Of a stretch of DNA of 19,030 bases, positions 2-19,030 are shown piece after piece. The position numbers and the translations under genes are program-made. Source of the DNA: a virus (Duplodnaviria > Heunggongvirae > Uroviricota > Caudoviricetes); the IMG/VR virus record IMGVR_UViG_3300001373_000069; one strand, 5' to 3'. Every line of letters begins with the position of its first letter. Position 1 is the first letter of the stretch. The notes beneath the pieces are model-generated. The model did no database searches. It was not told where the DNA came from and saw only the letters and a list, made by a program, of their open reading frames with translations.

Positions 2-718
2 GGGGCTTCTCAGTGGTTTCTCCCATTTTACCTCTTTGCTAAAAGCCAATGTGAAAGATTTAAAGTTTTTTGGAATAGGGCTCCAGCTTGAACGTTCGCC
101 ATATTTACTATCGTATCGAAGAAAATTCACGTTCCAGGTATCTTCATTATCTTTAAAACGTATGGTTTTAAACGGGATTGCAAGTTCAGCTATCCAACAG
201 TCATCGAAAATTTTTGCCTCCGAAAGCCATTTATTGTCCCATGTCAGCGAGTACGACTTGGTTGCTGTGCTGCCACTACCTGTTTCATTTCCACCATTAA
301 CAATTAAACCTTCCGATTGTACCCCAAACGGACTAAGCGAAAACATAAACGCGTTCGTTTTATCCTTGTAGGTATCTAAAATTACATAAAAGCCATCATA
401 AGAAATTCCTCTTGAGTCGCGACGCAAAGATTCAACAACATAATCACGTGGACCAATATTGTGCATCACTGCAATGATGTATAAATTGTCGTCGTCATAA
501 GTCATTCTTACTTCAGTAGCTCCAATTGCGGCGGCACTATCTGTTGGGAAATTCTGAATAAAGCCATTGGCAATATCTGCTTCATTCCAGACAAAATCGA
601 CCACACCATCGATAATAATTGGAGTAGAAGTTCTTTTAATGTTGAGGTTTTGTGCATTTGTTGAAAATGCAAAGCCAATACAAATTAACGCAAGAAAATA
701 ACCTTGTTTAAAGTTCAT
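2..718 (-). CDS. Secreted CBM9-like/DUF5916-type protein of Bacteroidota (partial, runs off left edge; absent from ORF track)
   Basis: Manual translation from ATG at 718 is open for 239 codons to the window edge: MNFKQGYFLALICIGFAFSTNAQ (Sec signal peptide, ending in a typical A|Q cleavage site), then IIIDGVVD...TEVRMTYDDDNLYI...VESLRRD...ILDTYKDKTNAFMF..SPFGVQSEG...WDNKW...WIAELAIPFKTIRF...W.VNF.R...ERSSWSPIP. I recognise this as the CBM9-like sugar-binding N-terminal region of DUF5916-type Bacteroidota proteins. Confidence 0.8.
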   Translation of the reverse strand, partial: MNFKQGYFLALICIGFAFSTNAQNLNIKRTSTPIIIDGVVDFVWNEADIANGFIQNFPTDSAAAIGATEVRMTYDDDNLYIIAVMHNIGPRDYVVESLRRDSRGISYDGFYVILDTYKDKTNAFMFSLSPFGVQSEGLIVNGGNETGSGSTATKSYSLTWDNKWLSEAKIFDDCWIAELAIPFKTIRFKDNEDTWNVNFLRYDSKYGERSSWSPIPKNFKSFTLAFSKEVKWEKPLRSP

Positions 719-737
719 AATAAAAGTATTTCACGTA

Positions 738-1619
738 TTACCACAAATCAGTCAATACAAAACTTTTTTCTACGAAAGGTAATAAAATCTGGTATATTCC
801 ATCCAGGTCATCGTTGTTTGTGATAACTAGGTCAAAACCTTTAAAGTCATCTAAAGCTGTTTCCGATTCATGAGTATCCGTGGATACTACTGATGGTCTG
901 TTAATGCGAATTAAAAGTCCTCCGCGCTCTTTGATAGCTTTTACCTCATTAGGGAAACGCATATCACTAATAAACCAATTAGGAAACTTAATGTAACCTC
1001 CAGGTAATCCGTTGGGAGCTGGAACTCCTTTATAATCAGCCATTGTGGCGTCAACCCAAGTATTATCATTGAACTGTTTACGAAATAAATCAGTACCTAT
1101 GAACTGCAGAGCATCTCTATAGGTTCTTCTTTCTTGTGTACAGTACTTACGATCACGGTAATCCATTGCATCGAAATAGTTTATCCTATCTGTAAAGAAT
1201 AGCATAGATTCTTTTTGTCTGCGATCGACTTCAGTAGTATCCTCAACATCATACTCCAAACAATAGAATCTGGGATTTTTATTATAGGTCTCCTCGGTTT
1301 GTTTTATCTTACCAAAGTTAGAAGCATAACTTCCGTAAACCCTTTTATTCCACGCAACTGGCATATAGGAATTCTTAAATTCTTCATCCTCAAGTTGTTC
1401 TCGAGTACACCCAGTAAGCATGCAAATGATATCCTTCAATTTATCCGCATACTTCTTGAACTCCCATTCCGTATTGATTTCAATACTATGATCCAGAACG
1501 TATTCTCTCATTGGTGGTAATTGATCTTCTCCTAATTTCTTAGCAGCAATTATCCAATTAAACATTCTAATCACAGTATCTTTACCATGCTGTTTCTTTC
1601 CGCTTACACCAACTATCAT
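738..1619 (-). CDS. Deoxynucleoside monophosphate kinase (phage dNMP kinase)
   Basis: N-terminal P-loop GVSGKKQHGKDT, YADKLKD, R..LQFIGTDLFR, ISDMRFPNE and HESE motifs of T4 gp1/T5-type dNMP kinases; long internal insertion. Confidence 0.85.
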   Translation of the reverse strand: MIVGVSGKKQHGKDTVIRMFNWIIAAKKLGEDQLPPMREYVLDHSIEINTEWEFKKYADKLKDIICMLTGCTREQLEDEEFKNSYMPVAWNKRVYGSYASNFGKIKQTEETYNKNPRFYCLEYDVEDTTEVDRRQKESMLFFTDRINYFDAMDYRDRKYCTQERRTYRDALQFIGTDLFRKQFNDNTWVDATMADYKGVPAPNGLPGGYIKFPNWFISDMRFPNEVKAIKERGGLLIRINRPSVVSTDTHESETALDDFKGFDLVITNNDDLDGIYQILLPFVEKSFVLTDLW

Positions 1620-1897
1620 TAGTTATCTGATGTTTTGATGTTAGGTGTAGATCTCAACATCTCATCCATCTCCATAACCGTTTTGGTGTGGTCTAAATCT
1701 GTCATAAGATTTTCCACTCCACCAGAATTTTCAAGAGCTTTCTTAGTACAAATTAACGTACTGATAAACTCCAGGTGACCGAAGTTGTCGTCTGTTGGGT
1801 CAGCAAGAAAAGCTTCTGCTTTTGCTTTAATGGCGTTTGCTAATTCCTCTTTGCTAGTGAAGCTAGCAAGCATTGGTAATATTTTGAATAAGTCCAT
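1619..1897 (-). CDS. Hypothetical protein (92 aa, likely helical)
   Basis: ORF whose TAA overlaps the kinase ATG (TAATG at 1617-1621); AT-rich leader; no recognisable motif. Confidence 0.7.
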   Translation of the reverse strand: MDLFKILPMLASFTSKEELANAIKAKAEAFLADPTDDNFGHLEFISTLICTKKALENSGGVENLMTDLDHTKTVMEMDEMLRSTPNIKTSDN

Positions 1898-1908
1898 GTT
1901 AAATAGTG

Positions 1909-2406
1909 TTATTTGTTTCCAGAACTACCAAATCCACCCTCACCGCGTTCTGTCTCTGATAGGGTTTCTACTTCTTCAAACTCAATAGGAATGATTTCCT
2001 CGATATACATCTGGGCTACACGTTCTCCTACTTTGTATGGAAATTTAGGGTATATCATCTTTTTGCGTTCTCCACAGCCACCTGGTCCATAAACCATAAC
2101 AGCTGGAGTAAACTCGAAATCAATAGGGAATGCCCTGAATCTAACTTGATACTCACCACGATAGTCAGGATCACCAAGGCCTGGAGCATTTTGAATATTC
2201 CACTGAGTTCCGGTTAAACTGCTTCTTGGAACAATGGTAACTTTATGATCTACTGGTGGTTGCAGAGCAAATCCAAGTTTACAAATTACAAACCCAGGCT
2301 CTTTCTCAACGATTTCAGTAACCGTAACATCCCATCCTCCTGCTAATTCACTTCCGCGTTTAGGCAACTGAGCCTCCGGATGTAGTTTTTGAAATTGTAC
2401 TTTCAT
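1909..2406 (-). CDS. dut: Trimeric dUTPase
   Basis: Motifs GWDV, PRSS, G..DPDYRGE, GERVAQ and RGEGGFGSSG. Start moved from 2445 to the ATG at 2406 (MKVQFQKL), which overlaps the upstream TGA (ATGA). Confidence 0.95.
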   Translation of the reverse strand: MKVQFQKLHPEAQLPKRGSELAGGWDVTVTEIVEKEPGFVICKLGFALQPPVDHKVTIVPRSSLTGTQWNIQNAPGLGDPDYRGEYQVRFRAFPIDFEFTPAVMVYGPGGCGERKKMIYPKFPYKVGERVAQMYIEEIIPIEFEEVETLSETERGEGGFGSSGNK

Positions 2407-2702
2407 ACTATCTTGATAAATTTTATTCTGTTTGCTAAAAACCACAAACCACCCTGACTCGCTGGTCGTTGGATTGATTCATAGTCTTCTATTTCAACTT
2501 CTACCCACACTCTACCTCTCTTAGATAGATGGGGTGCAACACAATCTGCAATACAATGCCAGAAAGGCCTGTCTGCATATCCTGTTGTAGGGTGATCTTC
2601 GGCAATAAGCCATTTATTAAACGGTAATCTCTCTGTTTTATTAATAAATAAAGAGGTTATACTACCGTCCTTCAGCTGCCTCACCAGTTTGTATGCTATC
2701 AT
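2403..2702 (-). CDS. Conserved phage hypothetical protein (His/Trp-rich)
   Basis: ATGA overlaps at both ends; AYKL...KDG...LFIN...HPT.GY..RP.WHC...APHL...RVWVEVE pattern resembles a recurrent phage unknown family (from memory, not searched). Confidence 0.75.
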   Translation of the reverse strand: MIAYKLVRQLKDGSITSLFINKTERLPFNKWLIAEDHPTTGYADRPFWHCIADCVAPHLSKRGRVWVEVEIEDYESIQRPASQGGLWFLANRIKFIKIV

Positions 2703-3394
2703 TTTCTAATTTTAAGTTCTTCTGGATAAAGTACAGACGTATGATCGCTTTGCCAATACTCTTCGGTATCAACATCCATTATTGTCAAAACTCCAAACCA
2801 ACCAGAGCCTGTATCAAGATTCCAACAATTACACCTCTTCTCTGGTTTCTCCTGTCCTAAGGCAGTGTGTCCAATGAAGACTTTGTTGTACATCTTTGTA
2901 CGATTAGCTGAATGACCATAGTGGTGGGATACTCCAAGAGCAGTCCACATAGCTCTATCCCATGTATAACAAGATAGTCTATCATGTCCTAACCCTTTTT
3001 TACTAGCCCATCCACCATGTATGTAAGCATTGTTTGCCTCATCAATGTAGTAATAATGAGCTCTATCGAAATATTCAATACGATGGGTAACCATAGCATT
3101 TGGACATTCTCTGTAGGAATCTATAGTGGCTTGACCGCCTTGAGTAATCCACTCGTATTTCTCAATACCAAACTTTAACCAATCATAAGTCCATTCATCG
3201 TGGTTTCCCATGATAGGAATCATATTTGGTATATTCAGTAGTGTTTCTATACACTCAGCTACATAAGGCCATCCATCGCATACATCCCCTAATACAAACA
3301 AACGGTCCACCTCTTTATCAAAGGCAGACCGTTGTAGTACTTGTTTAAGGGCTTTGATATTTCCGTGGATGTCTCCAACAGCAAATGTTCTCAT
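2699..3394 (-). CDS. Calcineurin-like metallophosphoesterase, lambda Ser/Thr phosphatase/ApaH type
   Basis: GDIHG, GDVCD, GNHD, HGG and GHT motifs in the expected order. Confidence 0.9.
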   Translation of the reverse strand: MRTFAVGDIHGNIKALKQVLQRSAFDKEVDRLFVLGDVCDGWPYVAECIETLLNIPNMIPIMGNHDEWTYDWLKFGIEKYEWITQGGQATIDSYRECPNAMVTHRIEYFDRAHYYYIDEANNAYIHGGWASKKGLGHDRLSCYTWDRAMWTALGVSHHYGHSANRTKMYNKVFIGHTALGQEKPEKRCNCWNLDTGSGWFGVLTIMDVDTEEYWQSDHTSVLYPEELKIRK

Positions 3395-3531
3395 TACCCT
3401 CTTATATTATCAGCTATTTTATTCACTATGGAGTTGTTAGAATCCATAAAATGATCAATAGTCAATATAATTGCTGGAACCACTGCATATAAGCAAGCGA
3501 CCAGCAGAACAACATTTAGAATTTGTTTCAT
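3394..3531 (-). CDS. Small putative single-pass membrane protein (45 aa; not in ORF track)
   Basis: Manual translation MKQILNVVLLVACLYAVVPAIILTIDHFMDSNNSIVNKIADNIRG*. It fills the gap exactly: ATG 1 nt after the upstream TAA, and its own TAA overlaps the phosphatase ATG (TAATG). Confidence 0.62.
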   Translation of the reverse strand: MKQILNVVLLVACLYAVVPAIILTIDHFMDSNNSIVNKIADNIRG

Positions 3532-3532
3532 A

Positions 3533-3769
3533 TTAAGTTCCTTCACATTGGTCTGGATACTCTGTTGGAATAAAGAAACTCTTTACTTTCAGTATTCGAT
3601 GTGGGGGATAATGCTCAAACACAACATTATTATTGTGTCTGTACCCTCCAACAACTATAGCTGATGCATGTTCTCTTACTTTTTCAGCTGAATCAACTTT
3701 ATAAGAGAAAACTCTGCCATCATCTAAGTATACTCTGACAACAAACTCCTTTTTATCCACAGGCTCCAT
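3533..3769 (-). CDS. Hypothetical protein (78 aa)
   Basis: Likely start MEPVDKKEF at 3769, overlapping the RNR end by 17 nt; the longer track start lies deep inside nrdJ. Confidence 0.65.
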   Translation of the reverse strand: MEPVDKKEFVVRVYLDDGRVFSYKVDSAEKVREHASAIVVGGYRHNNNVVFEHYPPHRILKVKSFFIPTEYPDQCEGT

Positions 3770-6272
3770 AACCACATTCTTTACATTGTTTACACCCACC
3801 TTCCATATGCATCTCAGATCCACAGTTAGGGCATGCTGATACACCACCATCGATATCCGGTATGTATCTTTTCAATTGTCTTGCAATAACTTTACTAATA
3901 TGAACTACAGATCCCTCAGACTTGTTTAGCTGTTCAACAACGAATTGTATAGCAGCACCATGTCTTAAGGCAGTAGATATCAGTCTCATAACAAATCCCC
4001 ATTCTGGAGTTTCAAATTTGGAAGTAATATCCTCGATTAACAAATGCCCAGATGTGTCTAGTAAGTTATACACACCGCTTTTCTGTTTTCGTAAAATACC
4101 AGTCTCTATCTTCGAGGATAGTATTGTGTCTCCACGTTTAAAGGCCATAGCTTCGAATGGTTTATCATCGAATAATCCTACCAGTACGATATACTTTTCA
4201 CCAGAAATTGTTGGTTGGAAAATATCACACTTCAGATCTTTAGGTCTTTTAGGCGCATCACGCTGTTCAAACTTACTAGAACTATTTACTACTGAATTCA
4301 ATACTCCGGCACGACTTCCGTCTCGGTAGATAGTTATACCTTTACAACCTGATTTCCAGGCTTTCATGTATAGGTCACCAACTACTTTCTCAGTTGTTGT
4401 AGTGGGCAGATTTGTTGTATTACTTATGCTATGGTCTATCCATTTCTGAACCATACCTATCATCTTGATTTTAACAACAGGGTCAATATCAGCAGAAGAT
4501 GATTTAGCATACGGGGATTCCTCAACCAAAGCAGCTATTATATCGTCAGATAAATCTTCTGGTTCTATTTCAGGATATTTGGTACCTATCCACTCCTTAA
4601 AATAAGGGTGAAATACTGGAAATTCTTCCCAAGAGTCGCCTTGATCATCTACAAAATCAACTTTAGAATGAGTATCGTTAGGATTAACCTTACGACTACG
4701 TTTATAAACCGGCATAAAAACTGGTTCAATTCCGCTAGTTTGATTATTCATAATAATTGACATAGTACCAACTGGTGGTATAGTCAACAATGCAATGTTA
4801 CGGCGCGGGATTCCGGCTTTACCAATACGGTTTAGGAACGGATTACCACGCTCGAGTGATGCATTAAATGCAGGAAATGTACCTCGTTTAGTGGCCAGTA
4901 CATAAGAAGCCTCATAGACTTTCTCTGCAAACTGTTGATGAATTCTCGCCAGATAGTCAGTACTATACTCGGTACCGTACTGCATTCCCAACATAGCTAG
5001 CATGTCACCATGACCAATGATTGAGATACCAGCACGTCGGCCCTTTTCAGTATTAATGCGGATATTATTCCACATATCAAGTTCAGTCCATTTAGTGTCG
5101 ATGTTCTCTGGATCAGCTTTGATCTTGTCGATGATCTGATTGATCTTTTTGATCTCAAGTTCAATGATGTTATCCATCATATGCGTAACCATAGCAGACA
5201 TTTTATCAAACAATTCATTGTCGAACCGGGCCACATCTTGAAATCTATTGATTACCATCTTAACCAGATTAACTGAAATTAGACGACAGCTATCGTAAGG
5301 ACTTAGAGGAATTTCTCCACACGGGTTAGTAGATACGGTAGTAAACCCACTTTTAGCATAGCAATCTGGTACTGACTCACGAATGATGGTGTCCCAGAAC
5401 AATGCTCCTGGTTCAGCAGAAGACCAATTAGCTTTAATTAAAGCATTCCATACCGGTTTAGCTTTAACTTTCCTAACATACACCGGTTTATCGTTATACA
5501 TTAGAGTTGTTAGTTTGTCCAGAATCAAACCATCCATATCAATACCTAGATTACTAACATCGAACTCACATGGAAAATGTTGTAGATAATACCCATCAGC
5601 ATCAACAGCCTGCATGAATTTATCAGACAGTCTAACGGAAACATTAGCACCGGTAACTTTACCAGTGTCCAGTTTCATGTTTATGAATTCCAGTACATCA
5701 GGATGGACAACATGTATGGATAACATTAAAGCTCCACGACGACCGTCTTGGGCCACTTCTCTAGAACTATTACTAAACCGTTCACAGAAAGATACTACAC
5801 CGGAACTAGTTCCAGCACTATTACTTACCGTGGTGGTTTTTGGTCGAAGATGACTCACATCAACTCCAACTCCCCCTCTACGTTTAGCTATTTGCACTAT
5901 CTCCTGATCTGTTTTTAGAATAGATCCGTAGCTATCCTCGTCATTACCAGAGATAACAAAACAATTACCTAAGGACGTTACAGAATACGGATTAGCTATG
6001 CCATATAAAGCAGAGCCTCCGGGGCTGATTACCTGATTTGAGAGAGCCTCGTAGTATTGATCTTCAGTGTAAGTTGTATCCCCTAAAGCAATATCTACAG
6101 AATGGATCTCTTTTGCAATTGCACTAAATCTATCTAATGGAGAGGCCTCAACAAACTCACCTTCTTTGTTTTTTAAACAATATTTGTTCATCCATACTTT
6201 TACAGCTAATTCATCGCCACGAAAGAACTTTAAACAATTTTTCTTTACTTCTTCATTTGTAAATACAGTCAT
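3753..6272 (-). CDS. nrdJ: Class II adenosylcobalamin-dependent ribonucleotide reductase with C-terminal TSCPD-like and Zn-ribbon regions
   Basis: Bacteroidota NrdJ-like N-terminus (FFRGDELAVKVWMNKY), SLGNCFV, GRRGALM, AEPG, TNPCGEIPL, PPVGT.S, QKWIDHSISNTTNLP, KGITIYRDGSR, and C-terminal CPNC..CKQCKEC. No NrdB in the window. Start set at ATG 6272. Confidence 0.92.
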   Translation of the reverse strand: MTVFTNEEVKKNCLKFFRGDELAVKVWMNKYCLKNKEGEFVEASPLDRFSAIAKEIHSVDIALGDTTYTEDQYYEALSNQVISPGGSALYGIANPYSVTSLGNCFVISGNDEDSYGSILKTDQEIVQIAKRRGGVGVDVSHLRPKTTTVSNSAGTSSGVVSFCERFSNSSREVAQDGRRGALMLSIHVVHPDVLEFINMKLDTGKVTGANVSVRLSDKFMQAVDADGYYLQHFPCEFDVSNLGIDMDGLILDKLTTLMYNDKPVYVRKVKAKPVWNALIKANWSSAEPGALFWDTIIRESVPDCYAKSGFTTVSTNPCGEIPLSPYDSCRLISVNLVKMVINRFQDVARFDNELFDKMSAMVTHMMDNIIELEIKKINQIIDKIKADPENIDTKWTELDMWNNIRINTEKGRRAGISIIGHGDMLAMLGMQYGTEYSTDYLARIHQQFAEKVYEASYVLATKRGTFPAFNASLERGNPFLNRIGKAGIPRRNIALLTIPPVGTMSIIMNNQTSGIEPVFMPVYKRSRKVNPNDTHSKVDFVDDQGDSWEEFPVFHPYFKEWIGTKYPEIEPEDLSDDIIAALVEESPYAKSSSADIDPVVKIKMIGMVQKWIDHSISNTTNLPTTTTEKVVGDLYMKAWKSGCKGITIYRDGSRAGVLNSVVNSSSKFEQRDAPKRPKDLKCDIFQPTISGEKYIVLVGLFDDKPFEAMAFKRGDTILSSKIETGILRKQKSGVYNLLDTSGHLLIEDITSKFETPEWGFVMRLISTALRHGAAIQFVVEQLNKSEGSVVHISKVIARQLKRYIPDIDGGVSACPNCGSEMHMEGGCKQCKECGYGACG

Positions 6273-6337
6273 TTTCAACTGGTTAACTAAATTATAAACA
6301 AACTTTTGTCATTATTTATAGTAGTTAAATTTATCTT

Positions 6338-6362
6338 AAAAACTGAGGTAGTAAAGCTCAAT
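6338..6362 (-). terminator. Possible weak intrinsic terminator
   Basis: Minus strand ATTGAG-ctttactac-CTCAGT (one G-U pair) followed by TTTT, just after the 6368 ORF stop. Short, AT-rich stem. Confidence 0.3.
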
Positions 6363-6367
6363 TAACA

Positions 6368-6706
6368 TTAATTTATTAAAAGTTTTGCCGGAAACAGCTT
6401 CAGTAGAAATTGTTTCTCTGGACTATCGGATGACGGACTTATTGTGAACCTATAATTAAATTCAAGTTCAGGGTCTTCGTTGTCCATAGCTACATCCATT
6501 TGTAGGATACCAACATTGTTGAATAAAGTCTTAAGAATACTCTCGACAGTACCCAACTGCTCTAAACTGTTAATAATTAATTTAATATCCAACTTATTAA
6601 CAGACCAGTCGGTTGATAATTCGCTGATCCCCTCTAAGATGTCTATTAACGTATTTACAGTAGTAATACTAGTGGTATCAGATATTTTGATACGTGCGTA
6701 TATCAT
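6368..6706 (-). CDS. Hypothetical protein (112 aa)
   Basis: Co-oriented ORF with AT-rich leader filling the gap between the nuclease and nrdJ; no motif recognised. Confidence 0.6.
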   Translation of the reverse strand: MIYARIKISDTTSITTVNTLIDILEGISELSTDWSVNKLDIKLIINSLEQLGTVESILKTLFNNVGILQMDVAMDNEDPELEFNYRFTISPSSDSPEKQFLLKLFPAKLLIN

Positions 6707-6749
6707 AAAATTGTTGTTAAGATTGTAAAGTATTTAACTAACCTTAACT

Positions 6750-7208
6750 TTACACAGAAGTGTCACCTTCTGGGGTAATTAACTTTAATAAATCCAGCAA
6801 CTCAACAGCCTCCTCTAACGAGAAAACGATATATCCTTTATAGTCTTTTAGTTTGAATAGTTTCCATCTCAACTTAAATAACTCATCGGCATAACCTTTT
6901 ACCTCTAGGTAGCAGTTATAGTCGGGTAAAAAGAAATCAGGTTTGTAGCCTATTTTCCTCTGGGTGATGGTTTTTATATCACCATCTTTAAACTCGGTAG
7001 TCTTTATACTATCAAATAAATCAACACTAGGTTCGTATTGGAAGTTTATACCTTCCTCGGTTAGATATTTCCAGACTTTGAACTCCGGCATGCTGTCAAA
7101 GACCAACTTACCGGGGTTCTCTTCTCTGTACTTGGCTTCAGAACCATTAATGTATTTACCTTCTTCAGTGACTTTCTTAACGACTACCCTTCCTTGGTAT
7201 CTAGCCAT
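6750..7208 (-). CDS. PD-(D/E)XK endonuclease (DUF1064/T7 endonuclease I-like, possible resolvase)
   Basis: FDS..E, YEP, YKPDF and LEVKG motifs. Confidence 0.72.
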   Translation of the reverse strand: MARYQGRVVVKKVTEEGKYINGSEAKYREENPGKLVFDSMPEFKVWKYLTEEGINFQYEPSVDLFDSIKTTEFKDGDIKTITQRKIGYKPDFFLPDYNCYLEVKGYADELFKLRWKLFKLKDYKGYIVFSLEEAVELLDLLKLITPEGDTSV

Positions 7209-8784
7209 TGTTATCTGGGATAATTATTACCTTAGATTTAATTAATGTTTTAGTAACAGACGACGCATTAATCATAGCATTAATAGCTACAAGGGCAGGG
7301 TCAATTATACCTAACGTAAACGCATCCCCTATTTCCAAAGAATCAATATCAAGAACAGTAGTTTCGTTGTCTGCAAATTTAGGATCGGAAGAGTACTTAT
7401 CCCAATCAATACCAGCATTACTACATAATACTCTAACCGGAATATAGCATGCACTAATTACAACAGCAAGAGCAGATTGTTGATCAAATGACATAGTAGC
7501 CTGTCTCTTAGACTCCATAAATCTACCGGCGTAATAAAGAGCCATCCCACCACCAGGTAGAACACCTCCATTTACAGCCGCAGATACAGCACAAACCGCA
7601 TCATCAACTCTATCTTTCTTTTCGATAACTTCGGCTTGAGTGGTTCCACCAACTTTTATGGTAGCAACACTTGAGTATTTAGAAAGCCTACGTTTGAAAT
7701 GAGTACTAGCTGCCGAGTTAGCATCCAGCTTAACATCATTATAAGCAGCTTTTAGCTCTTTTACAAGCTTTTCTACCTCAGATGTTATCTTATCTTCAAA
7801 TGGAAATAATATTAGCTCATTGGGCCCGATGATAGCTTTCTCGACCAGACCATTATGATCAACTGAGTAATCGCGCAGTAAGGTAGAAGTACTTCCATCT
7901 ATACTAAGAATAGTAGCACCAGTTATACTAGCAATATCACGTAAAATCTCTAATCGATAAGAAGAGAAACCTTCTGCTTCCACTAACGTTATATCGGCAA
8001 AAGATCTAGACCTATTAATGTCTACAACACGCTGTACATCAACGGAGAATTCTTTAGCAATAACAATATAAGGTTGTTTACTTGCACTAGCCTGTCTTAG
8101 TATCTGTTCTATCTGATAGATATCGGATATAGGACCTTCAATCAGTACTATATTAGTATCGGCTTTTTCTGATTTAACCTTAGTATATACTTTGGTATCT
8201 AGTGAGGCGCCATTGGTAATGGTTACATCAGATACTAAATTATCAGTAGCTTCTACATTAATTATGCCATCAACACCAGCTGATTTAACAGCTTTATTAA
8301 CTAGGTCTATAACTTCCTGATCATTATTACTAGATATAGTAATGACAGAATGCAGTAATTCAGAATCCTTATTGATAAGGGTCTTGGTATCTTCCAGGTA
8401 CTCAACTACATCACTGATTGCCTCATCAAAGTATTCAAGAAACGCCTTGATAGAGTCGCATATATTCATAGCATTTAGCCCTTCAGTCACCATTGTCTTC
8501 GTCAATAAAGTAGAAGTAGTAGTTCCGTCCCCAACTGCAGCAGCAGTCTTACGAGCAGACTCTTTAATCAATGATACGATGGCCTGTTTAGTAGGATCAG
8601 CATATCTAATACTCTCACTTACTGTAACGCCATCTTTAGTTACATGAGGAATATCCCCATCGCTATTGGCTATTATAACAGTGCGGCCTCCTGGGCCTAA
8701 AGTACTACATACAGCATCGCAAAACTCTGTAACAGTCTCCAGGAGAATGTCAGCAGAGTTATTTAAAATTTTCTTAGGTTCCAT
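7201..8784 (-). CDS. groEL: GroEL-like group I chaperonin (phage-encoded)
   Basis: TLGPGGR, TKDGVTV, GDGTTT, IKVGG.T..E..EKKDRVDDA and GVLPGGG motifs; no GGM tail. Start set to MEPKK at 8784, 1 nt after the ligase stop. Confidence 0.94.
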   Translation of the reverse strand: MEPKKILNNSADILLETVTEFCDAVCSTLGPGGRTVIIANSDGDIPHVTKDGVTVSESIRYADPTKQAIVSLIKESARKTAAAVGDGTTTSTLLTKTMVTEGLNAMNICDSIKAFLEYFDEAISDVVEYLEDTKTLINKDSELLHSVITISSNNDQEVIDLVNKAVKSAGVDGIINVEATDNLVSDVTITNGASLDTKVYTKVKSEKADTNIVLIEGPISDIYQIEQILRQASASKQPYIVIAKEFSVDVQRVVDINRSRSFADITLVEAEGFSSYRLEILRDIASITGATILSIDGSTSTLLRDYSVDHNGLVEKAIIGPNELILFPFEDKITSEVEKLVKELKAAYNDVKLDANSAASTHFKRRLSKYSSVATIKVGGTTQAEVIEKKDRVDDAVCAVSAAVNGGVLPGGGMALYYAGRFMESKRQATMSFDQQSALAVVISACYIPVRVLCSNAGIDWDKYSSDPKFADNETTVLDIDSLEIGDAFTLGIIDPALVAINAMINASSVTKTLIKSKVIIIPDNNG

Positions 8785-8785
8785 T

Positions 8786-9925
8786 TTAATCTGGTCTATT
8801 AATATCAACTACTACGGGAAACCGTAGTTTACCATCATCAGTAAATCCAAAGAAACGAACAGTCGCTTTAAGGCCGACATAATCATCAGCTCTATCCAGT
8901 AGATCCTCAAAATAACTTTTATCCCCCCTAATTCCACAGCCAACCAAAGCCCCATAAACATCAACAACAATAGAGCCGGCCATACTACTACGATTACCTT
9001 TACCAGGTAGTATCGCTTTAATAATGAATTCATCATCATCAAATATCTTAATTTTAAGTAAAGACTTAGCCCTTTTGTTTACATACCTAGCAAATGGAAT
9101 TCTAATAATACTACCTTCGTAACCATCTTCTAGATTTTTATCCAAACCCCATTTATAATCAACAATAGTATTAACTATAGTTCCAGGTATCACAAAGACT
9201 TTATCTATGGATAATGACTGTAAGTGTTCTACTAACCAGGCTTTTCTTTCTTTAGCAGTAAGGTCAGGATTTGCTTCATCAAACATGTCATAAACATGAT
9301 ACTCAGCAACGCTTAACATTTCTCCTAGCTCAGCTTGGTTTGGTTTTTCCTTACGGAACAATTTCATTAGTGTCTGAAAATTAGCATGATATTCGTGATT
9401 ATATAGTTCACCATCTAAAGTTACTGTAGGGTATTGTTCAAAGAATCCTCCTAGATTGGCAAGGATTTCTACAGAAGCTGCTATAGGTTTACCTTTTCTA
9501 GAATGGGCTATTTTTGGTTGGGTAACCATACGCATACCATCAAGTTTAGGGTCGATTATTACCTCTACCCCTTCTTCCATTTCCCACTTAGCATCTTTAG
9601 CTGTTTCAGCTAACATAGGAGAAAAATACTTATGTCGGGTAATAGTAACTTCCTCTATATCGTAAGAATAGTGTTCGATAGCGATCTTCTTTGTATACTT
9701 TGCAGCAACTTCAGCGATAGCTTGCTCCTCGGGAGTGGTAGCATTACTTCTACCAACATTCTTAGGTTTACATTCGGTCCACGCGGTGGTGATTTTAGCA
9801 CCATCAATTAAACCTGTAATGGTCCGATAAGAACCTCCAGACACTTCCATCTGAAAAGTTCTTATCTTACCTTTAGAATCCTGTTTATACAGAACTGCAC
9901 CTAATTCATTAGACAATTCGTCCAT
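8786..9925 (-). CDS. ATP-dependent DNA ligase with N-terminal extension
   Basis: PKLDGMR (KxDG), LDGELY, YHVYD, EGSIIR, LLKIK and OB-fold ATVRFFG..DGKLRFP. N-terminal LYK.DSKGKIR...KNVGRSNATT domain as seen in Bacteroidota phage ligases. Start uncertain (9925 or 9943). Confidence 0.92.
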   Translation of the reverse strand: MDELSNELGAVLYKQDSKGKIRTFQMEVSGGSYRTITGLIDGAKITTAWTECKPKNVGRSNATTPEEQAIAEVAAKYTKKIAIEHYSYDIEEVTITRHKYFSPMLAETAKDAKWEMEEGVEVIIDPKLDGMRMVTQPKIAHSRKGKPIAASVEILANLGGFFEQYPTVTLDGELYNHEYHANFQTLMKLFRKEKPNQAELGEMLSVAEYHVYDMFDEANPDLTAKERKAWLVEHLQSLSIDKVFVIPGTIVNTIVDYKWGLDKNLEDGYEGSIIRIPFARYVNKRAKSLLKIKIFDDDEFIIKAILPGKGNRSSMAGSIVVDVYGALVGCGIRGDKSYFEDLLDRADDYVGLKATVRFFGFTDDGKLRFPVVVDINRPD

Positions 9926-11549
9926 AATTAATCGGTGTATCAATTACCATAGGTAATCCATCGCGTTCTATTATCAGTAACCATCCAGATGTAGATCCAA
10001 GACCTAATCTATCAGCATAGTCATCTGTGGGAGCGAAAGCAGGACAGTGCATCTTGCGATAATTTGAATTATCGTCGTCTTTGCTTATAATACGAGAATG
10101 CCAATGACCCTCTAAGATCAGATTGAACATATCCTGTTTACCATATTTCCAAACAATTTTATCTGCAGACTTCTTGTCAAGTCCTTGATCTCCATGAAGA
10201 TTGATAAATTGTAGATTACCATTACTAAACACAGTTCTATGACTAGTATGAATTATTTCAACACTAGGCATGCTATTAGCTAACATATAGAACAATAGTT
10301 TAGACCCCTCATTGGTGTCTTCTAGTTCTTTATCCGGTTGTAACCGGTCATGATTACCACTTACCGAAGTAACTGTTACCAGATTATTAATACTACCGAG
10401 AAACTTGTATAGAATCTCAAATGGTTTGATAATTGAATTAGCTCCCCAGGCACCTTGTTCTATGGTTTTCCACATTCCTGCATGATTAGTACCAGTAACA
10501 GTATGTATAGTATCACCAAGGAAAGAAACGATAACCTTCTTACCTCCGACGGCATTGATATCTTTAGCTACCTGATTAAGTTTTTGTTCTGCAATATTGT
10601 AATTGAATACCGGTAGTAACAAACCTAAATGTAAATCAGTAATAACCACATTCACGTATTCAGGAGAATCGTTGCTTACTGTTACTGCCGGTTTTGCAGG
10701 TAACGTAATATTCAATGCTTTAATACCCTCAGCAATCTCAGTCATAAAAGAATCGTGACGCAGGTTCTTGTTAGAATACTCCACGTAGGCTTTCTTATAC
10801 GCCTTAATCACTGCTTCTAAGGCAGCTGAATCGGTTTCTTTTACAACATCCAGTAAAGATGTAGCATTAGCTACTGTTACGGCATAGATATCTTCACGTT
10901 CCATATACTCATCGGTAAATGGTCCAAATGGTTCGGAGTCTTTAGTTAGATTAAGTTTAGTCATTATTGCGGATAACTCATTTACAGACAACTTTAAATT
11001 ACTCATTATCTGAGTTTTAGTAAGGTTTAATCCCTTACGCGAATATGCACAGAATACCCTATCAACCAACTCTACATCGAATAAGTAATCGACTTTTGAA
11101 ATGGTTAATTTATATTTGAGGTTCTTAACCTCATAGGTGTCAGTAGTCACTTCTTCGTTCTGTACAGCAAAGTAGACTGGTTTTACGATGTCTGGAAAAA
11201 CTTCTTCTTCTTCCTCTTCTTCCTCAAGTGGGTCGATTTCTTCCTCTTCCTCAAGATCATCATCGGAAACACTGATAGCCATTTCAAGAGCTGCTGAGTA
11301 TTCAGGAGAATGTTCTACCTCTAATTTGTTGATCGGTTCTTCTGGGAGATCAAGAGAGTCGCGTAATTCTGTAATGTCCTCTTCATAGGCAACCTCTGCT
11401 TTAATATCCCCAATAAACCCACGCAGTGTGCGGTGAGATTTACCTGTAATAGCTTGATCTTCAAGTATCTTATCAGCCAAACTAGTATTATTTACACCTG
11501 GATTTTCTACAACGTAATCTCTTATAATATCTCGAATATATTGCTTCAT
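9909..11549 (-). CDS. Multi-domain metallophosphoesterase (N-terminal helical/HTH-like region, acidic linker, C-terminal calcineurin-like domain)
   Basis: C-terminal TDLHLG, LGDTIH, SGNHDR, LHGD and GHWH motifs; long non-catalytic N-terminal half. Confidence 0.85.
   Translation of the reverse strand: MKQYIRDIIRDYVVENPGVNNTSLADKILEDQAITGKSHRTLRGFIGDIKAEVAYEEDITELRDSLDLPEEPINKLEVEHSPEYSAALEMAISVSDDDLEEEEEIDPLEEEEEEEEVFPDIVKPVYFAVQNEEVTTDTYEVKNLKYKLTISKVDYLFDVELVDRVFCAYSRKGLNLTKTQIMSNLKLSVNELSAIMTKLNLTKDSEPFGPFTDEYMEREDIYAVTVANATSLLDVVKETDSAALEAVIKAYKKAYVEYSNKNLRHDSFMTEIAEGIKALNITLPAKPAVTVSNDSPEYVNVVITDLHLGLLLPVFNYNIAEQKLNQVAKDINAVGGKKVIVSFLGDTIHTVTGTNHAGMWKTIEQGAWGANSIIKPFEILYKFLGSINNLVTVTSVSGNHDRLQPDKELEDTNEGSKLLFYMLANSMPSVEIIHTSHRTVFSNGNLQFINLHGDQGLDKKSADKIVWKYGKQDMFNLILEGHWHSRIISKDDDNSNYRKMHCPAFAPTDDYADRLGLGSTSGWLLIIERDGLPMVIDTPINYGRIV
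11201..11265 (-). repeat. Low-complexity GAA/GAG tract encoding DDDLEEEEEIDPLEEEEEEEEV
   Basis: Two copies of CTTGAGGAAGA plus GAA triplets on the minus strand, in frame within the 546 aa ORF. Confidence 0.8.
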
Positions 11550-12670
11550 TATGATGCTAATTTCTCAATAATTAACCTGATAATTTCAGGTCTATCTGTT
11601 TTAAATAGTGATTCCTCGAGTTCGGGGAACATAGTTTTTACTAAAGCCAAACCAGCTTCGACATCATGATGTTTAATGTAATCACTAATATCTTTATCTA
11701 GTACTTTCTGCTTTCCGTTTATTAGTACTTGATCCTGACTTATCCATCGTATTATAAGTCCATATTGTTCTAGTCTAATAGCAGCCTCAATTCCGGCTGG
11801 GTCATAATCCATAACAACGTAGATGGTTTTATATTTGGTTTTAAATTCATTAATAAGGTGTTCTGGGAAATGCCAGGTTTCGCTCTGCGGTGCAATACAA
11901 TCACACTTTATCAGAGAATAGAAACACATAACATCCTTCAAACTCTTAGTGATAATGAGTGTATCGTTACCTTCTAACTGTTCTTGTCCGAGGATATAAT
12001 GAGCTGGACAAGTGTTTCTCCACTTAAACTCATCTTCTTCCGGACAATAAAGTTTAACCTTATCATAAACCACATACACAAATGCTAACTCGGTTCTTTT
12101 AAATTCATATTTTATAGAATAATCTTCACCAAGTAAATACTGCACGCTTCTTACATTGAACTTCTTAAGAATACTTTCATCGATTCCAAATCGAGCCCAC
12201 CATAGAATGTCTCTACGAGTAAACTCTCTTGATTTGAATAATATCTCTTTCTTTTCTCTAGCTGCTTCAAGGTCAATTTCGCGTCTTGTATGTGTTTGTT
12301 TTTCAGTACCAAATATACCCAGTCCTAACTCTGTATCTAGATACTTGATGATATCAAGTCTGGTTTCCAGAGTTATGTTATGATGAAATAGTGCAAATCT
12401 TTGTACAAATGAAAATACGTCTCCATATCCACCTGCAAAATCTTTCCACCACACCTCATCTGGTCTTACATCTCTTTTTGTTTCAGTGGGTACATATAAA
12501 GAAAATGAGGCTCTCGTATCATCATCCCGTAAAGGACTGCTGATAGATTGCCCCATCTCTAAATCAATACCCAATAACTCACAATAAATATCAAAGTCAG
12601 TAATTTCGTCGAGTAGTTTATCAGTTAAAGTTTTTTTACTGGAAACATATTTACGAAATAAATTTGACAT
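11549..12670 (-). CDS. dnaG: DNA primase (DnaG-like TOPRIM, crAss-like type)
   Basis: N-terminal SPLR.D...SF...WKDF.G..GD domain; IITKSLKDV, MDYDPAG (DxD) and KDISD TOPRIM motifs. Confidence 0.85.
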   Translation of the reverse strand: MSNLFRKYVSSKKTLTDKLLDEITDFDIYCELLGIDLEMGQSISSPLRDDDTRASFSLYVPTETKRDVRPDEVWWKDFAGGYGDVFSFVQRFALFHHNITLETRLDIIKYLDTELGLGIFGTEKQTHTRREIDLEAAREKKEILFKSREFTRRDILWWARFGIDESILKKFNVRSVQYLLGEDYSIKYEFKRTELAFVYVVYDKVKLYCPEEDEFKWRNTCPAHYILGQEQLEGNDTLIITKSLKDVMCFYSLIKCDCIAPQSETWHFPEHLINEFKTKYKTIYVVMDYDPAGIEAAIRLEQYGLIIRWISQDQVLINGKQKVLDKDISDYIKHHDVEAGLALVKTMFPELEESLFKTDRPEIIRLIIEKLAS

Positions 12671-12678
12671 ATAAATAA

Positions 12679-12975
12679 TTAAGGTATAGTAACACTATTT
12701 AGAGTAGATATTAGCATATCAGCGTCTTTTACTGCCTTATAAGCTAATTCATCCTCTGGTGTATTTTCAAACGAAGGCGATGATATCAATGTTGAAAAGA
12801 TTGTCATAGCCATAATCTCCCTTTTAGTTAATGGTAACTTTTGTGAGGAGTCACCATTTTCTGGGTAAGTGAAATGCAATGTAATATCTCGAGCTACCCC
12901 ATTAGCATCCATATAGGAGCCGGATACTTCGGTTATTAATGCACTATTAGCCGGATCGGTAGCTACTGTTAACAT
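12679..12975 (-). CDS. Small phage protein with LTKRE...A...AV..AD.L motif
   Basis: C-terminal LTKREIMAM...ELAYKAVKDADMLI resembles a widespread small phage protein family of unknown function; TAATG overlap with the upstream gene. Confidence 0.7.
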   Translation of the reverse strand: MLTVATDPANSALITEVSGSYMDANGVARDITLHFTYPENGDSSQKLPLTKREIMAMTIFSTLISSPSFENTPEDELAYKAVKDADMLISTLNSVTIP

Positions 12976-13676
12976 TAGATAGAATCAAATGTTGGAGCAG
13001 AAACTCGTTTTTCACCTGGCTCCGGAGCCGATCCTACTCTATCAGGTTCAGCCTGTGTAGGTCTAGTTTCGTTTTGTGCTGCATCAAAGATCTCTTTTTC
13101 TTTAACAGTTACTACAGGTAAATCCTGGTCAGAGTCCATAGGAAGAATCCAATTGGTTTCTTTACCAAATTCAAGGAAACCTTTTTTATTTGAAGTCATT
13201 TTACACTGCAGTAAAGGACTAGCATCACCAGTTTTACCATCAATGGCTGTCTTAAATGCATCACGAAGAGCATCCTGTATCACTTTAGCACCCTTTTTGG
13301 TAGATAGGTGTTGTTTTGTGATAACACCATCTTCGATACCAGTAGCATCGATGAAATCACCTACAAACTGTTCCAGGTCACCACCTAAAGCATCCACAAG
13401 GAATACCATAGTTGTAAATTGGTCGTCGTAGTTTAGTAATACGAAATCACTGGTAGGGTCAAGATCCCAGAAGCTTCCTTCGAATTTAGCCTTAACTTCA
13501 CGAGTTATTGGGTCTACTTGCTGTAAAGTAATAAAAGTATTGGCACGTATAGCAGCCTCTTTACCTTTTCTCTCTTCGTAGTCAACACCGGCTACAATAA
13601 TATTATAATTATGTCCAAACGAAAGCGATGCTCTCACTGGTTTAGACTCTACATACTGTCTGAATAAATTACTCAT
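12975..13676 (-). CDS. Hypothetical protein, paralog A (possible ssDNA-binding/replication protein)
   Basis: 233 aa ORF aligning by eye with the 13693-14349 product; low-complexity C-terminal tail ending PTFDSI; N-terminus shared with the primase. Function is inference. Confidence 0.75.
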   Translation of the reverse strand: MSNLFRQYVESKPVRASLSFGHNYNIIVAGVDYEERKGKEAAIRANTFITLQQVDPITREVKAKFEGSFWDLDPTSDFVLLNYDDQFTTMVFLVDALGGDLEQFVGDFIDATGIEDGVITKQHLSTKKGAKVIQDALRDAFKTAIDGKTGDASPLLQCKMTSNKKGFLEFGKETNWILPMDSDQDLPVVTVKEKEIFDAAQNETRPTQAEPDRVGSAPEPGEKRVSAPTFDSI

Positions 13677-13692
13677 GGTATAATATTAAGCA

Positions 13693-14349
13693 TTAAACAT
13701 TAGCGGCGGTTGCACCCAACTTAGCGGATACATTACCACTTTTAGCATGATTCTTTAACTCTGAGTTTGAAAACTTTAGAGTTGTTTCACCATCACCCAT
13801 TGGCTCGCATATTGTACCATATTTAGGTAATTCAACGATAGCACCTTTTGGATCTGTTGTTAATTTTAAGTGTAATAATTTACCTTCAATTCCAACATGA
13901 TCCTTGATGGCAGCACTAAAACAATCTTTTAAACTTGTCATTAGCGTTGTACAATCTTTAACTTTCCACTTATACTCTTTGATATCCTCAACAGTTTTGA
14001 ATTCAAACTCATCGAAGATATGATCAAAGAAAGTATCCACCACATCCTTAGACATATAACATTCCAGAATACCAACTAACTGAGAGCATAGCTCTAGCAT
14101 ATTGTCCTGAAAATACTTGTTACCGATTGGGTCAAGTTTCCACCAACTTACCTCTATATCGCGAAGTTTCTTTCTGGTTGTAGGGTCCACTTCAGCAAAA
14201 GTAATATACAAAAACTTCTTAGAAGGAGTGCCATTAGAACGCCTTTCTTCGGTATCTACCGAGGTTATTGTGATATTCGAATGAATACCCTTATCAAGTT
14301 TGGATACGTTTACTCTGGAAAGTAACGCTAGCACGTCTTTTCTTGCCAT
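13693..14349 (-). CDS. Hypothetical protein, paralog B
   Basis: 218 aa ORF sharing G...NI....VD.EER, IT...VDP.TR and E.S.W.LDP blocks with paralog A. Confidence 0.75.
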   Translation of the reverse strand: MARKDVLALLSRVNVSKLDKGIHSNITITSVDTEERRSNGTPSKKFLYITFAEVDPTTRKKLRDIEVSWWKLDPIGNKYFQDNMLELCSQLVGILECYMSKDVVDTFFDHIFDEFEFKTVEDIKEYKWKVKDCTTLMTSLKDCFSAAIKDHVGIEGKLLHLKLTTDPKGAIVELPKYGTICEPMGDGETTLKFSNSELKNHAKSGNVSAKLGATAANV

Positions 14350-14393
14350 TTTATTTCTTATTTGTTATCAACTAATTATTTAATTACAACAAT

Positions 14394-15038
14394 TTAATCA
14401 TGGATTATTGTAATATCACCATCTTCCGTCAATTCGACGTCCATTTCATCTCCACCAAGGTCTCTAGCGACATCGTTCAGCTCCACATCGGAATACATTC
14501 CAAGAAGAACCTCAGGAAATAATGCCCTTACAGCATAGCTTAGACATCTTGCTCGCATCATCTCCTTTGGGTACTTAGACCAATTCTGTTTATCGGTATA
14601 ACCAGCAAGGGTCATTTGATTCCAGGTAATAGAGAATACGGTTTCGATAACTGTTCCAGTTACATTTGACTTCCAATAGAACTTGTAGGAAGTACGTTTA
14701 TCCGGTTTACCGTTAGGAGCATCGACTGTTACATAATCCTCGGCAATTACCCATTCTACACCATGTTTCTTTAGCATTGCGCCAAGCATAGACGAACTGA
14801 TTACAGGACGACCGGCTATAACGTGAATGTTATTTAACGCGATATGAGGGGTTAAACCAAGCTCTTTACCATGTTGTACGATAGTTATTACTTGTTCTGG
14901 TTCGGTGATACTACTTGGTAATAGTCCAGAGTTTATGATGGTATCGGCCCATCTTTTCATCTCGTCAATGTTAGAAAATCCAGTTAACTTAACTGGGGCA
15001 CTGTCGAGGGGTTTTATTGTTGCTAATTCTTTAGCCAT
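14394..15038 (-). CDS. RecT/Redbeta-like single-strand annealing protein
   Basis: G.ELGL.P..AL.NI.VI.GRP and W.KYP..M.R.R.L..A.R..FP.VL.G.Y motifs; acidic C-terminus. Confidence 0.8.
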   Translation of the reverse strand: MAKELATIKPLDSAPVKLTGFSNIDEMKRWADTIINSGLLPSSITEPEQVITIVQHGKELGLTPHIALNNIHVIAGRPVISSSMLGAMLKKHGVEWVIAEDYVTVDAPNGKPDKRTSYKFYWKSNVTGTVIETVFSITWNQMTLAGYTDKQNWSKYPKEMMRARCLSYAVRALFPEVLLGMYSDVELNDVARDLGGDEMDVELTEDGDITIIHD

Positions 15039-15099
15039 TGCTATATAAAGTTTGTTAGACCATTAAATCTAATTTACTTTACATTAATTACAGACACAC

Positions 15100-15385
15100 C
15101 TAAGACATTAATAAAGATCTATCGGCATTCCATTTTTGCTGAAACTCACCGGGATTATCGAGATATGCAGATAACTTCTCAATAAGTTTCTTTTTGTTTT
15201 CAATAGCAAGAGTTTGACATCCTACCTTAACAAGGTAACCATAGTCTAATGCTTCGATGCGAATATTGTACAATGTACTATTAGAAGCTCCTAAAGAACC
15301 CGCAGCTAAACCTGTACTATAGATATCCGAAATACCTAAATAAGGACCATCGACAGTTTCACATTGATTATTTTGATCGAAAAAA

Positions 15386-15393
<8 letters not shown>
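15100..15393 (-). CDS. Hypothetical protein (97 aa)
   Basis: Likely start MSDFF at 15393, overlapping the DnaB-like stop by 8 nt; contains IRIEALDYGYLVKVGCQT.AIE. Confidence 0.68.
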
Positions 15394-17750
<2,357 letters not shown>

Positions 17751-17751
17751 C

Positions 17752-19029
17752 TTATTTAGTCCATTTGGTTAATACTTTAGTATCTACACCAAGCAAACCT
17801 TTACCGAGAAATAATTCACCGGCCTCGATCATACACTTCTCCTGAAGAGCTACCAATGTTTCCTGATCATCTTTATGACAAGATGACAGTATTTCATCAT
17901 GAACTGGTAGGTGCAGCTTGGCTCTTAGCCCAGTACTTTTTATCTGTTTAGATAATTCGCAAAGTGCTATCTTTAAGATAGTTGCGTTCGTCTCCTGGAT
18001 TGGGTAGTTCTTCCCTTCTCTTCCGATAGCCTCACGTTCACCTTGATTCTCTGGCTCTGCAAAGAATCTTATTCTACCTGTAGGCATCAAACTCCTTACA
18101 AACATATTCTGCATAGCTGAATTACCAGTACTATCAAACAATATTCTGAGTTTAGGAAAAACCACAAAGAATTGATTAATAAGTGCTTTGGCTTCATCTT
18201 TAGGAATATCTAAGCGTTCGGCTAAGCCGTGGTATGTTAAACCGTAAGCAAGACCAAAACTAATTGCTTTAGATTTCTTTCTAAGCTTCAAATGCTCAGG
18301 GCATGTACATTGAGATCCATCAACCATCCAAGCACAATCAGGTTCAGCGGCACTAGTCCACTTATCACCAAAAATCAATGACGCAGACATGCAATGCAAA
18401 TCCCTTTTATCTCTTATAGCATCTAGGAAAGCTTCTTCTCCGGCAGCATATGACATAATCACAAGTTCAGCTGATGAGAAGTCAGAATCCACAAACACAT
18501 CATCTTCACCTGGAGGTAAGAAAGCATTCCTAAACCGTGGTTCTGATGGTATCTGCAACAAAATTCCAAAGGCTATTCTGCCGGTATTTAAAATTTGAGA
18601 GCAGTTATTAGGACATATCATACCATCTCGACGTACATACTTCTCTAGAAAGCTGGCTCCGTACGAAGTTACCCTCTTTTGAGCTGATACATACTTCTTG
18701 AAATGTGTAATGATTTCGTTCTTGGTGATTCGATTTAGGCTTTTCGAATTAGTATCAACTAAGTTAGGGTAGTAGAAAGTAAAGATAGCTAATTTGTGGG
18801 GATTGGAATTCCAATTTATCATAACAGTACCCTTAGGTACATATAGTCCGCATTCTATTAACCAATCTCTATGCTGAGACACAAGGATGTCATTTAACGA
18901 GTCGTAGTCTCTATCCATATAATAATTGATATAATCAATCTCATTCATGGTTAGGGTATCTTCGTTATCTTTAAACCACTTTTTAATCGTTGGTTTGGTA
19001 GTACAATCAGCAGGAAGACTAGGTACTAA
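17752..19029 (-). CDS. polA: Family A DNA polymerase, C-terminal polymerase domain (5' partial)
   Basis: Motif A DSDFSSAEL, motif B RKKSKAISFGLAYG (Phe at the E. coli 762 position), NYPIQ and motif C VHDEI. The frame stays open upstream of the track ATG (18948) to the window edge (LVPSLPADCTTKPTIKKWFKDNEDTLT-M). Confidence 0.95.
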   Translation of the reverse strand, partial: LVPSLPADCTTKPTIKKWFKDNEDTLTMNEIDYINYYMDRDYDSLNDILVSQHRDWLIECGLYVPKGTVMINWNSNPHKLAIFTFYYPNLVDTNSKSLNRITKNEIITHFKKYVSAQKRVTSYGASFLEKYVRRDGMICPNNCSQILNTGRIAFGILLQIPSEPRFRNAFLPPGEDDVFVDSDFSSAELVIMSYAAGEEAFLDAIRDKRDLHCMSASLIFGDKWTSAAEPDCAWMVDGSQCTCPEHLKLRKKSKAISFGLAYGLTYHGLAERLDIPKDEAKALINQFFVVFPKLRILFDSTGNSAMQNMFVRSLMPTGRIRFFAEPENQGEREAIGREGKNYPIQETNATILKIALCELSKQIKSTGLRAKLHLPVHDEILSSCHKDDQETLVALQEKCMIEAGELFLGKGLLGVDTKVLTKWTK

Positions 19030-19030
19030 T

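Follow-up and report, generated by a model that had tools for sequence, protein, structure and literature searches.

A phage-to-bacterium junction within a dNMP kinase gene, most likely a contig-end join and not a stable phage feature

INTRODUCTION

Morons normally bring their own promoter and terminator, have phage genes on both sides and are common to related phages. Examples of host-derived morons and auxiliary genes are lom of phage lambda, a moron encoding an outer-membrane beta-barrel, and the gene for the BACON-domain protein of crAssphage. As to junctions created during assembly, De Bruijn assemblers seldom join genomes in the absence of a shared k-mer. Concerning integration, some large crAss-like (epsilon) phages encode repressors and anti-repressors, and prophage-like relatives of theirs are present in Parabacteroides chromosomes (PMC11054128).

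Here we analysed a stretch of 19,030 nucleotides from the IMG/VR virus record IMGVR_UViG_3300001373_000069, called the window below, in which a phage operon runs into the beginning of a bacterial gene. A previous examination of the letters (the sequence-only reading) had offered three explanations: a prophage boundary, the capture of a host gene or an assembly chimera. All three survive our analysis, now constrained and re-weighted. The observation itself is correct and the junction could be mapped to the base; its meaning is most likely mundane, a join at the end of a contig.

RESULTS

The junction

All genes of the window lie on the minus strand. The dNMP kinase (DNMK) ORF occupies positions 738..1619 (293 aa) and ends with a TAA at 740-738. 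It is followed, after a spacer of 19 nt (737-719), by the ATG (718-716) of a DUF5916/CBM9-like ORF, of which the 5′ part (2..718, 239 codons) is open at the window edge. The stop codon at 738-740, the same-strand ATG at 718 and the 19-nt gap had all been given by the sequence-only reading, and these coordinates hold when the minus strand is read.

Position 764 and everything rightward of it is homologous to five related phage contigs. When the window was compared by blastn with four related phage loci, unbroken homology ended at 764 (L007) or at 767 (L006 and L015), and leftward of this point neither blastn nor the alignments gave a match to the related loci. The phage/foreign breakpoint (763..764) is thus located 24 nt inside the DNMK ORF, at a run of six A on its phage side (764..769, minus strand), where the window reads GTAGAAAAAA before the break and GTTTTG after it. 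Base 763 is the first difference: the window has AGT (Ser), compared to AAY (Asn) in P0242, the kinase of a second contig described below. According to PF21448, phrog_139 and our alignment A1, residues 1-285 of DNMK are of phage origin and residues 286-293 belong to the foreign segment. The latter (1-763) comprises the last eight kinase codons (763-741, SFVLTDLW), the stop, the 19-nt spacer and the DUF5916 gene, so that 45 nt of foreign leader (719..763, minus strand), devoid of homology to the related phages, precede the DUF5916 ATG. Locus L007 shares the A-run, which is followed there by ATAT and then by the overlapping start of the next gene. The A6 run is a possible site of microhomology or low complexity for template switching or illegitimate recombination.

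The surroundings of the break were searched for signals. No terminator-like site was found in 1-2500 and no tRNA or tmRNA in the window. Rfam gave no match close to the junction, and Pfam and PHROGs profiles detected no integrase domain among the ORFs of the 19 kb. These results uphold the previous impression that terminator, tRNA and integrase are lacking here. No convincing sigma-70 or Bacteroidota promoter was detected at the junction. A direct repeat of 719-790, which had been suggested as a sign of an attachment site, does not occur within the window; the far end of the element would lie outside it. The repeats that touch the junction region (I5, I19 and D3/D4) are short, imperfect and at chance level. 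For a prophage boundary, the lack of a tRNA and of a repeat of the junction in the window is unfavorable, whereas the host-side break, intergenic and 45 nt before a start codon, is what such a boundary could look like.

The sequence-only reading had also taken a weak Bacteroidota -7-like element in the 3′ end of the kinase as a hint that cellular sequence might extend into this gene. The string TACCTTTCG is indeed present at 781-773, but it does not fit the Bacteroidota -7 consensus TAnnTTTG. Exact matches to this consensus are absent from the junction region, and the window as a whole shows no enrichment (16 matches, compared to 21.6 expected). The element at 773-781 (minus strand) is phage coding sequence, made of L-P-F-V codons conserved in the relatives, and is therefore no mark of cellular DNA. 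The extension of cellular sequence into the kinase was nevertheless correct as far as the last eight codons and the stop are concerned; it is the proposed evidence that fails.

The phage side

From 1619 to 19030, Pfam and PHROGs matches define a phage operon on the minus strand, collinear with L006, L007, L008, L010 and L015. It includes a 92-aa ORF, a dUTPase, a 99-aa ORF, a metallophosphatase, the ribonucleotide reductase (RNR) large subunit, DUF1064, GroEL, an ATP ligase, a primase, a RecT-like protein, an exonuclease and PolA (family A DNA polymerase). DNMK itself matches PF21448 (49.6 bits for a cut-off of 27.1) and, over residues 1-278, phrog_139 (E=9e-35); its N-terminal P-loop, GKKQHGKD, is invariant in alignment A1. 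By these matches it is a predicted T4-type dNMP kinase.

Two gene models within this operon deserve a remark. The 105-aa ORF at 3533-3850 overlaps the 3′ end of the RNR gene (3753-6278) by ~98 nt, where the relatives have an ORF of 72-78 aa with an overlap of ~17 nt. Its exact 105-aa product is not in the protein collection, and the true start is probably further downstream. The RNR gene of the window is a single uninterrupted ORF of 841 aa with a weak C-terminal TSCPD match. In a phage related at 72%, the large subunit is split into parts of 325 and 522 aa by a LAGLIDADG gene (L007:4677-8042, L008:4759-8124), an insertion of intron or intein type.

Five independent relatives were used for comparison (L006, L007/L008, L010/L011 and L015 in our numbering), with kinases 58-77% identical to that of the window. 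Some of them are carried on contigs of 170-178 kb. In all five, DNMK is followed by an ORF of 96-102 aa that overlaps its stop, and then by ThyX. Since the kinase of the relatives overlaps this ORF, the join in the window splits a gene pair that is conserved and translationally coupled, well inside the operon. Neither the 96-aa ORF nor ThyX is found anywhere in the window. Past ThyX, all five encode a GIY-YIG protein and then MazG or an Rnl-like RNA ligase; a Pnk-like kinase and UDG, KilA-N and RlaP proteins are also encoded there in the relatives, and L010 and L015 have extra small ORFs near the site. The Rnl-type RNA ligase (phrog_968) and the Pnk-like kinase, encoded 3-5 kb past the dNMP kinase gene (L007:13702-15483, L010:12975-14993), constitute an RNA repair pair like that of T4, which fits virulent, T4-like biology.

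The nearest phages in GenBank are distant, with identities of 25-33% at the protein level and no match at the nucleotide level. Primase and DNMK are closest to crAss-like phages, GroEL to Flavobacterium and Vibrio phages and PolA to assorted phages. The previous label 'crAss-like' is therefore weakly supported: it agrees with primase and DNMK, at 25-33% identity, and not with GroEL, and the relation of this phage to crAss-like phages is distant at most. Two invariant motifs of the DNMK clade were used to scan 185,579 GTDB species genomes. No member of the clade was found, the only returns being two 2-kb MAG contigs with 30-34% identity. The closer relatives are all on phage-only contigs.

These comparisons weaken the explanation by a prophage boundary, which would place attP at the overlap of the kinase and the 96-aa ORF and attB in the promoter region of the host DUF5916 gene. 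The attachment site would then interrupt an overlapping gene pair within an operon with which all five relatives are collinear. No integrase or recombinase is encoded within 19 kb on the right side (the window) or 10 kb on the left side (the relatives), the kinase clade was not found in the chromosomes of the GTDB species genomes scanned, and the gene set, with the RNA ligase and Pnk seen in the relatives, looks virulent. On the other side of the balance, the relatives encode the KilA-N protein 8-9 kb from the site.

Locus L001:9163-13292 of IMG/VR record G001, and likewise L002 of G002, carries an operon of NrdD, NrdG, dUTPase, ThyX, a 194-aa DNMK and NT5C. At the end of this operon, 1.2 kb past the kinase, a large serine recombinase of 580 aa faces a convergent lysis module, and G001 encodes in addition a tyrosine integrase, at 52.6 kb. 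An integrase next to the kinase is thus possible in large phages with operons of this type. G001 and G002 are a different kind of large phage (NrdD, and ThyX before a 194-aa kinase), and their recombinase says little about the phage of the window.

The bacterial side

The product of ORF 2..718 starts with a typical Sec signal peptide, followed by a match to Pfam CBM9_1 (residues 36-212, 32.4 bits for a cut-off of 23.4), and is 76% identical over 97% of its length to DUF5916 proteins of 746 aa. The best matches among 5.8 billion proteins are DUF5916 proteins of 707-756 aa with 61-78% identity. As the window ends at residue 239 and the DUF5916 domain begins at about residue 244 in the homologue P0003, we infer the membership of the gene in the DUF5916 family (PF06452 + PF19313) from these similarities.

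The closest homologues (76-78% identity, 707-746 aa) are set among cellular genes for glycoside hydrolases, two-component systems and proteases. Many homologues are on large Bacteroidota contigs, some up to 8 Mb, and several are named Cyclobacteriaceae, Flavobacteriaceae or Bacteroidota. Of the closest loci, the two that have long flanks are plainly cellular: at L003 the gene is accompanied by GH3, GH2, GH42 and GH30 genes and a LytTR two-component system; at L004, by an S41 peptidase, OmpR/HisKA and hydrogenase-maturation genes. No member of the family was found in 50,697 GenBank phage records, among the PHROGs, in an IMG/VR scan with two invariant family motifs or in G001 and G002. The sequence-only reading was thus right to regard the downstream gene as a cellular Bacteroidota type.

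A literature search on DUF5916 found no paper. In the AlphaFold model of P0003 (mean pLDDT 73.5), an N-terminal beta-sandwich precedes a long run of antiparallel strands. The sandwich resembles solved CBM9 modules (TM-scores 0.62-0.71 by target), and the best matches of the rest are large outer-membrane barrels (LptD, TonB-dependent receptors and ushers), with TM-scores so low that the fold class alone is supported. The protein to which the fragment belongs is, on this model, most likely an outer-membrane protein with a carbohydrate-binding-like module. More generally, the predicted fold suggests that DUF5916 proteins are a class of Bacteroidota outer-membrane proteins still awaiting characterisation.

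The two sides cannot be told apart by base composition, because the foreign piece, the phage and the cellular contigs L003 and L004 have the same G+C (38%). They can be by synonymous codon usage. Each of the 14 phage genes tested fits the phage better than L003 or L004, by +0.002 to +0.10 log-likelihood per codon, and the DUF5916 fragment is the only one of the 15 genes tested that fits the cellular contigs better (-0.069 for L003, -0.035 for L004). By its codon usage, the fragment is recent cellular DNA. A copy long resident in the phage is ruled out by this usage and by the absence of the gene from all relatives. Comparison of the 45-nt leader with the upstream regions of the DUF5916 genes of L003, L004 and L012 did not place the boundary on the host side, intergenic conservation being too low.

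These data bear on the capture of a host gene. In a very recent event of this kind, microhomology-mediated illegitimate recombination at the A-run would have replaced or displaced what follows the kinase with host DUF5916 DNA in one phage subpopulation. The gene would be read through from the phage operon, since 45 nt of leader are too short for a complete Bacteroidota promoter. It is co-oriented with the operon and begins 19 nt past the new kinase stop with no terminator in between; the kinase is spared, with the foreign DNA standing in for the next cistron; the donor has a host-like taxonomy and the same G+C; and the neighbourhood is plastic, as indicated by the small ORFs of L010 and L015, the nearby GIY-YIG gene and the LAGLIDADG gene that splits the RNR of L007/L008. 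Cellular codon usage, however, implies that the event would be extremely recent, the gene is in none of the phage collections searched (GenBank phages, PHROGs, IMG/VR), and events of this kind are rare. Together with the sister contig described below, these points make such a capture rather unlikely.

The same phage without the join

The exact DNMK of the window (P0002) is recorded on a single JGI contig, of 96,683 nt. At 90% clustering it groups with a single further protein, P0242, which is encoded on a JGI contig of 37,570 nt. Both proteins are identical at 285 of 286 positions and unrelated from residue 286 on. Nine other proteins encoded between 1622 and 17750 of the window are each present in identical form on two JGI contigs, the longer of which is 96,683 nt. 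Most parsimoniously, one phage strain would have been assembled a second time as the 37.6-kb contig, the only difference starting at DNMK codon 286. The tail of P0242 (N-M-F-P-W-E-R-N-S-K...) agrees with the A-run and ATAT at locus L007, and the W/K-rich tail of L010 is similar to it. Since it continues as the relatives do, P0242 represents the native state and the window the derived one.

Cluster look-ups for the downstream proteins of L015 and L007 gave no member from the 96,683- or the 37,570-nt contig; one lead from the look-ups (P0303/L022) begins ~6 kb past the site. We also considered that the genome might physically end at the junction; this is ruled out, as the sister contig and all relatives read through.

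For the bacterial partner no such counterpart is known. Ten of the 11 complete window proteins looked up are in the protein collection (nine of ten, plus DNMK). In the same collection of 15 billion proteins, neither a product of the window DUF5916 gene of any length from 131 to 2000 aa nor the exact 239-aa fragment is present. A partial product might have been expected, as JGI partial products do occur in the collection (e.g. P0244). The source contig may end here, or the gene may be uncalled; these observations fit a contig beginning at window position 1 or close to it.

The sister contig bears differently on the rival explanations. A stable gene capture, already weakened by cellular codon usage, is contradicted by the absence of the gene in this essentially identical phage and in all relatives. 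Against a very recent capture speak the same phage, identical in nine neighboring proteins and lacking the gene, the five relatives, which lack it too, and the probable stop of the contig inside the gene, odd for a phage with coverage sufficient for 96 kb.

Identical sequences that diverge at one sharp point, on the other hand, resemble attP compared to attL or attR. In the corresponding prophage explanation, a single phage would be represented by the 96.7-kb contig in its integrated form and by the 37.6-kb contig in its free form. We consider it unlikely, a degree more so than recent capture, and give it this much weight because the junction is tidy and because some large crAss-like phages are reported to be possibly temperate (PMC11054128). 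Its fully specified version would have a ~170 kb virulent-looking, distantly crAss-related Bacteroidota phage inserted upstream of a host DUF5916 gene with no integrase adjacent, the attachment site inside its own nucleotide-metabolism operon and the 37.6-kb contig as free form; a biological junction of this description is still more doubtful.

DISCUSSION

Most likely, the junction is not a stable feature of the phage; it is probably either an assembly artefact or a one-off recent event. The explanation that we favour, with a chance somewhat short of even, is a misjoin at a contig end during assembly, or else a DNA molecule that is itself chimeric or hybrid. Part of a large, virulent-looking Bacteroidota phage would have been linked to ~760 nt of Bacteroidota chromosome bearing the start of an outer-membrane CBM9/DUF5916 gene. 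The native phage would continue from the break with a short kinase tail, the overlapping ORF of ~96 aa and ThyX. The break would coincide with a gene and mosaic boundary; there the assembly graph would branch, and extension of the contig would have carried it into unrelated bacterial sequence.

We favour a misjoin because the same phage exists without the join (nine identical proteins, two versions of the kinase), because all five relatives continue from the kinase to the 96-102-aa ORF and ThyX, because the foreign gene is of cellular type with cellular codon usage, and because the absence of the DUF5916 product from the collection fits a short foreign tip at a contig end. Each side is not equally documented: the phage partner is known without the join, the bacterial partner by homologues of 76-78% identity alone.

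Several observations run against a misjoin. The join is tidier than expected of a random chimera. Its host side leaves just 45 nt ahead of a co-oriented start codon; on its phage side, the conserved portion of the kinase is intact and the break coincides with the expected beginning of the next gene. The chance of both tidy features can be roughly estimated at ~0.1-2%, allowing for a bias toward A/T runs and for the clustering of contig ends at mosaic boundaries. A tendency of contigs to break off at gene or mosaic boundaries would account for the tidiness on the phage side. The partner, moreover, belongs to Bacteroidota with the same G+C of 38%, a plausible host and not a random member of the community. 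The weak point of the misjoin is therefore the tidiness on the host side, together with the lack of a demonstrated shared k-mer.

The distinction has practical consequences. Should the join be an artefact, we recommend trimming the contig at 763/764 prior to host prediction, provirus calling or the cataloguing of auxiliary genes; untrimmed, the contig would have a cellular outer-membrane gene booked as phage-encoded and the phage booked as temperate. If the join is real, it would either show a host gene shortly after its entry into a phage operon, not yet ameliorated, or be the first indication that this group of large Bacteroidota phages can integrate. It would then bear on the acquisition of host genes by such phages and on the debated lifestyle of crAss-related phages.

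Compared to known systems, the gene itself resembles Bacteroidota DUF5916 (PF19313) proteins with an N-terminal CBM9-like domain (PF06452), with the same signal peptide, CBM9_1 match and 76% identity over 239 residues; in contrast to the full-length proteins, the window has the first third alone, the barrel lying outside. As with morons and auxiliary genes such as lambda lom and the crAssphage BACON-domain protein, a host-type gene for an envelope or carbohydrate-binding protein stands directly behind a phage operon and is co-oriented with it. Unlike morons, it has no promoter or terminator at the junction and one flank in view, and is absent from a near-identical phage and from the relatives. 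With the attachment boundary of a prophage the junction shares a sharp phage/host edge, intergenic in the host, through which identical phage sequence reads elsewhere; it differs by the site inside an operon, by the lack of a detected adjacent integrase, tRNA target or att repeat, and by a phage clade not found in bacterial chromosomes. The tidy gene boundary and orientation, with no shared k-mer or repeat demonstrated, set the window apart from the usual chimeric contigs. Like inter-genome chimeric contigs of metagenomes, on the other hand, it switches abruptly from one genome to another at a low-complexity run, apparently ~760 nt from the contig end, and its phage partner is known without the join.
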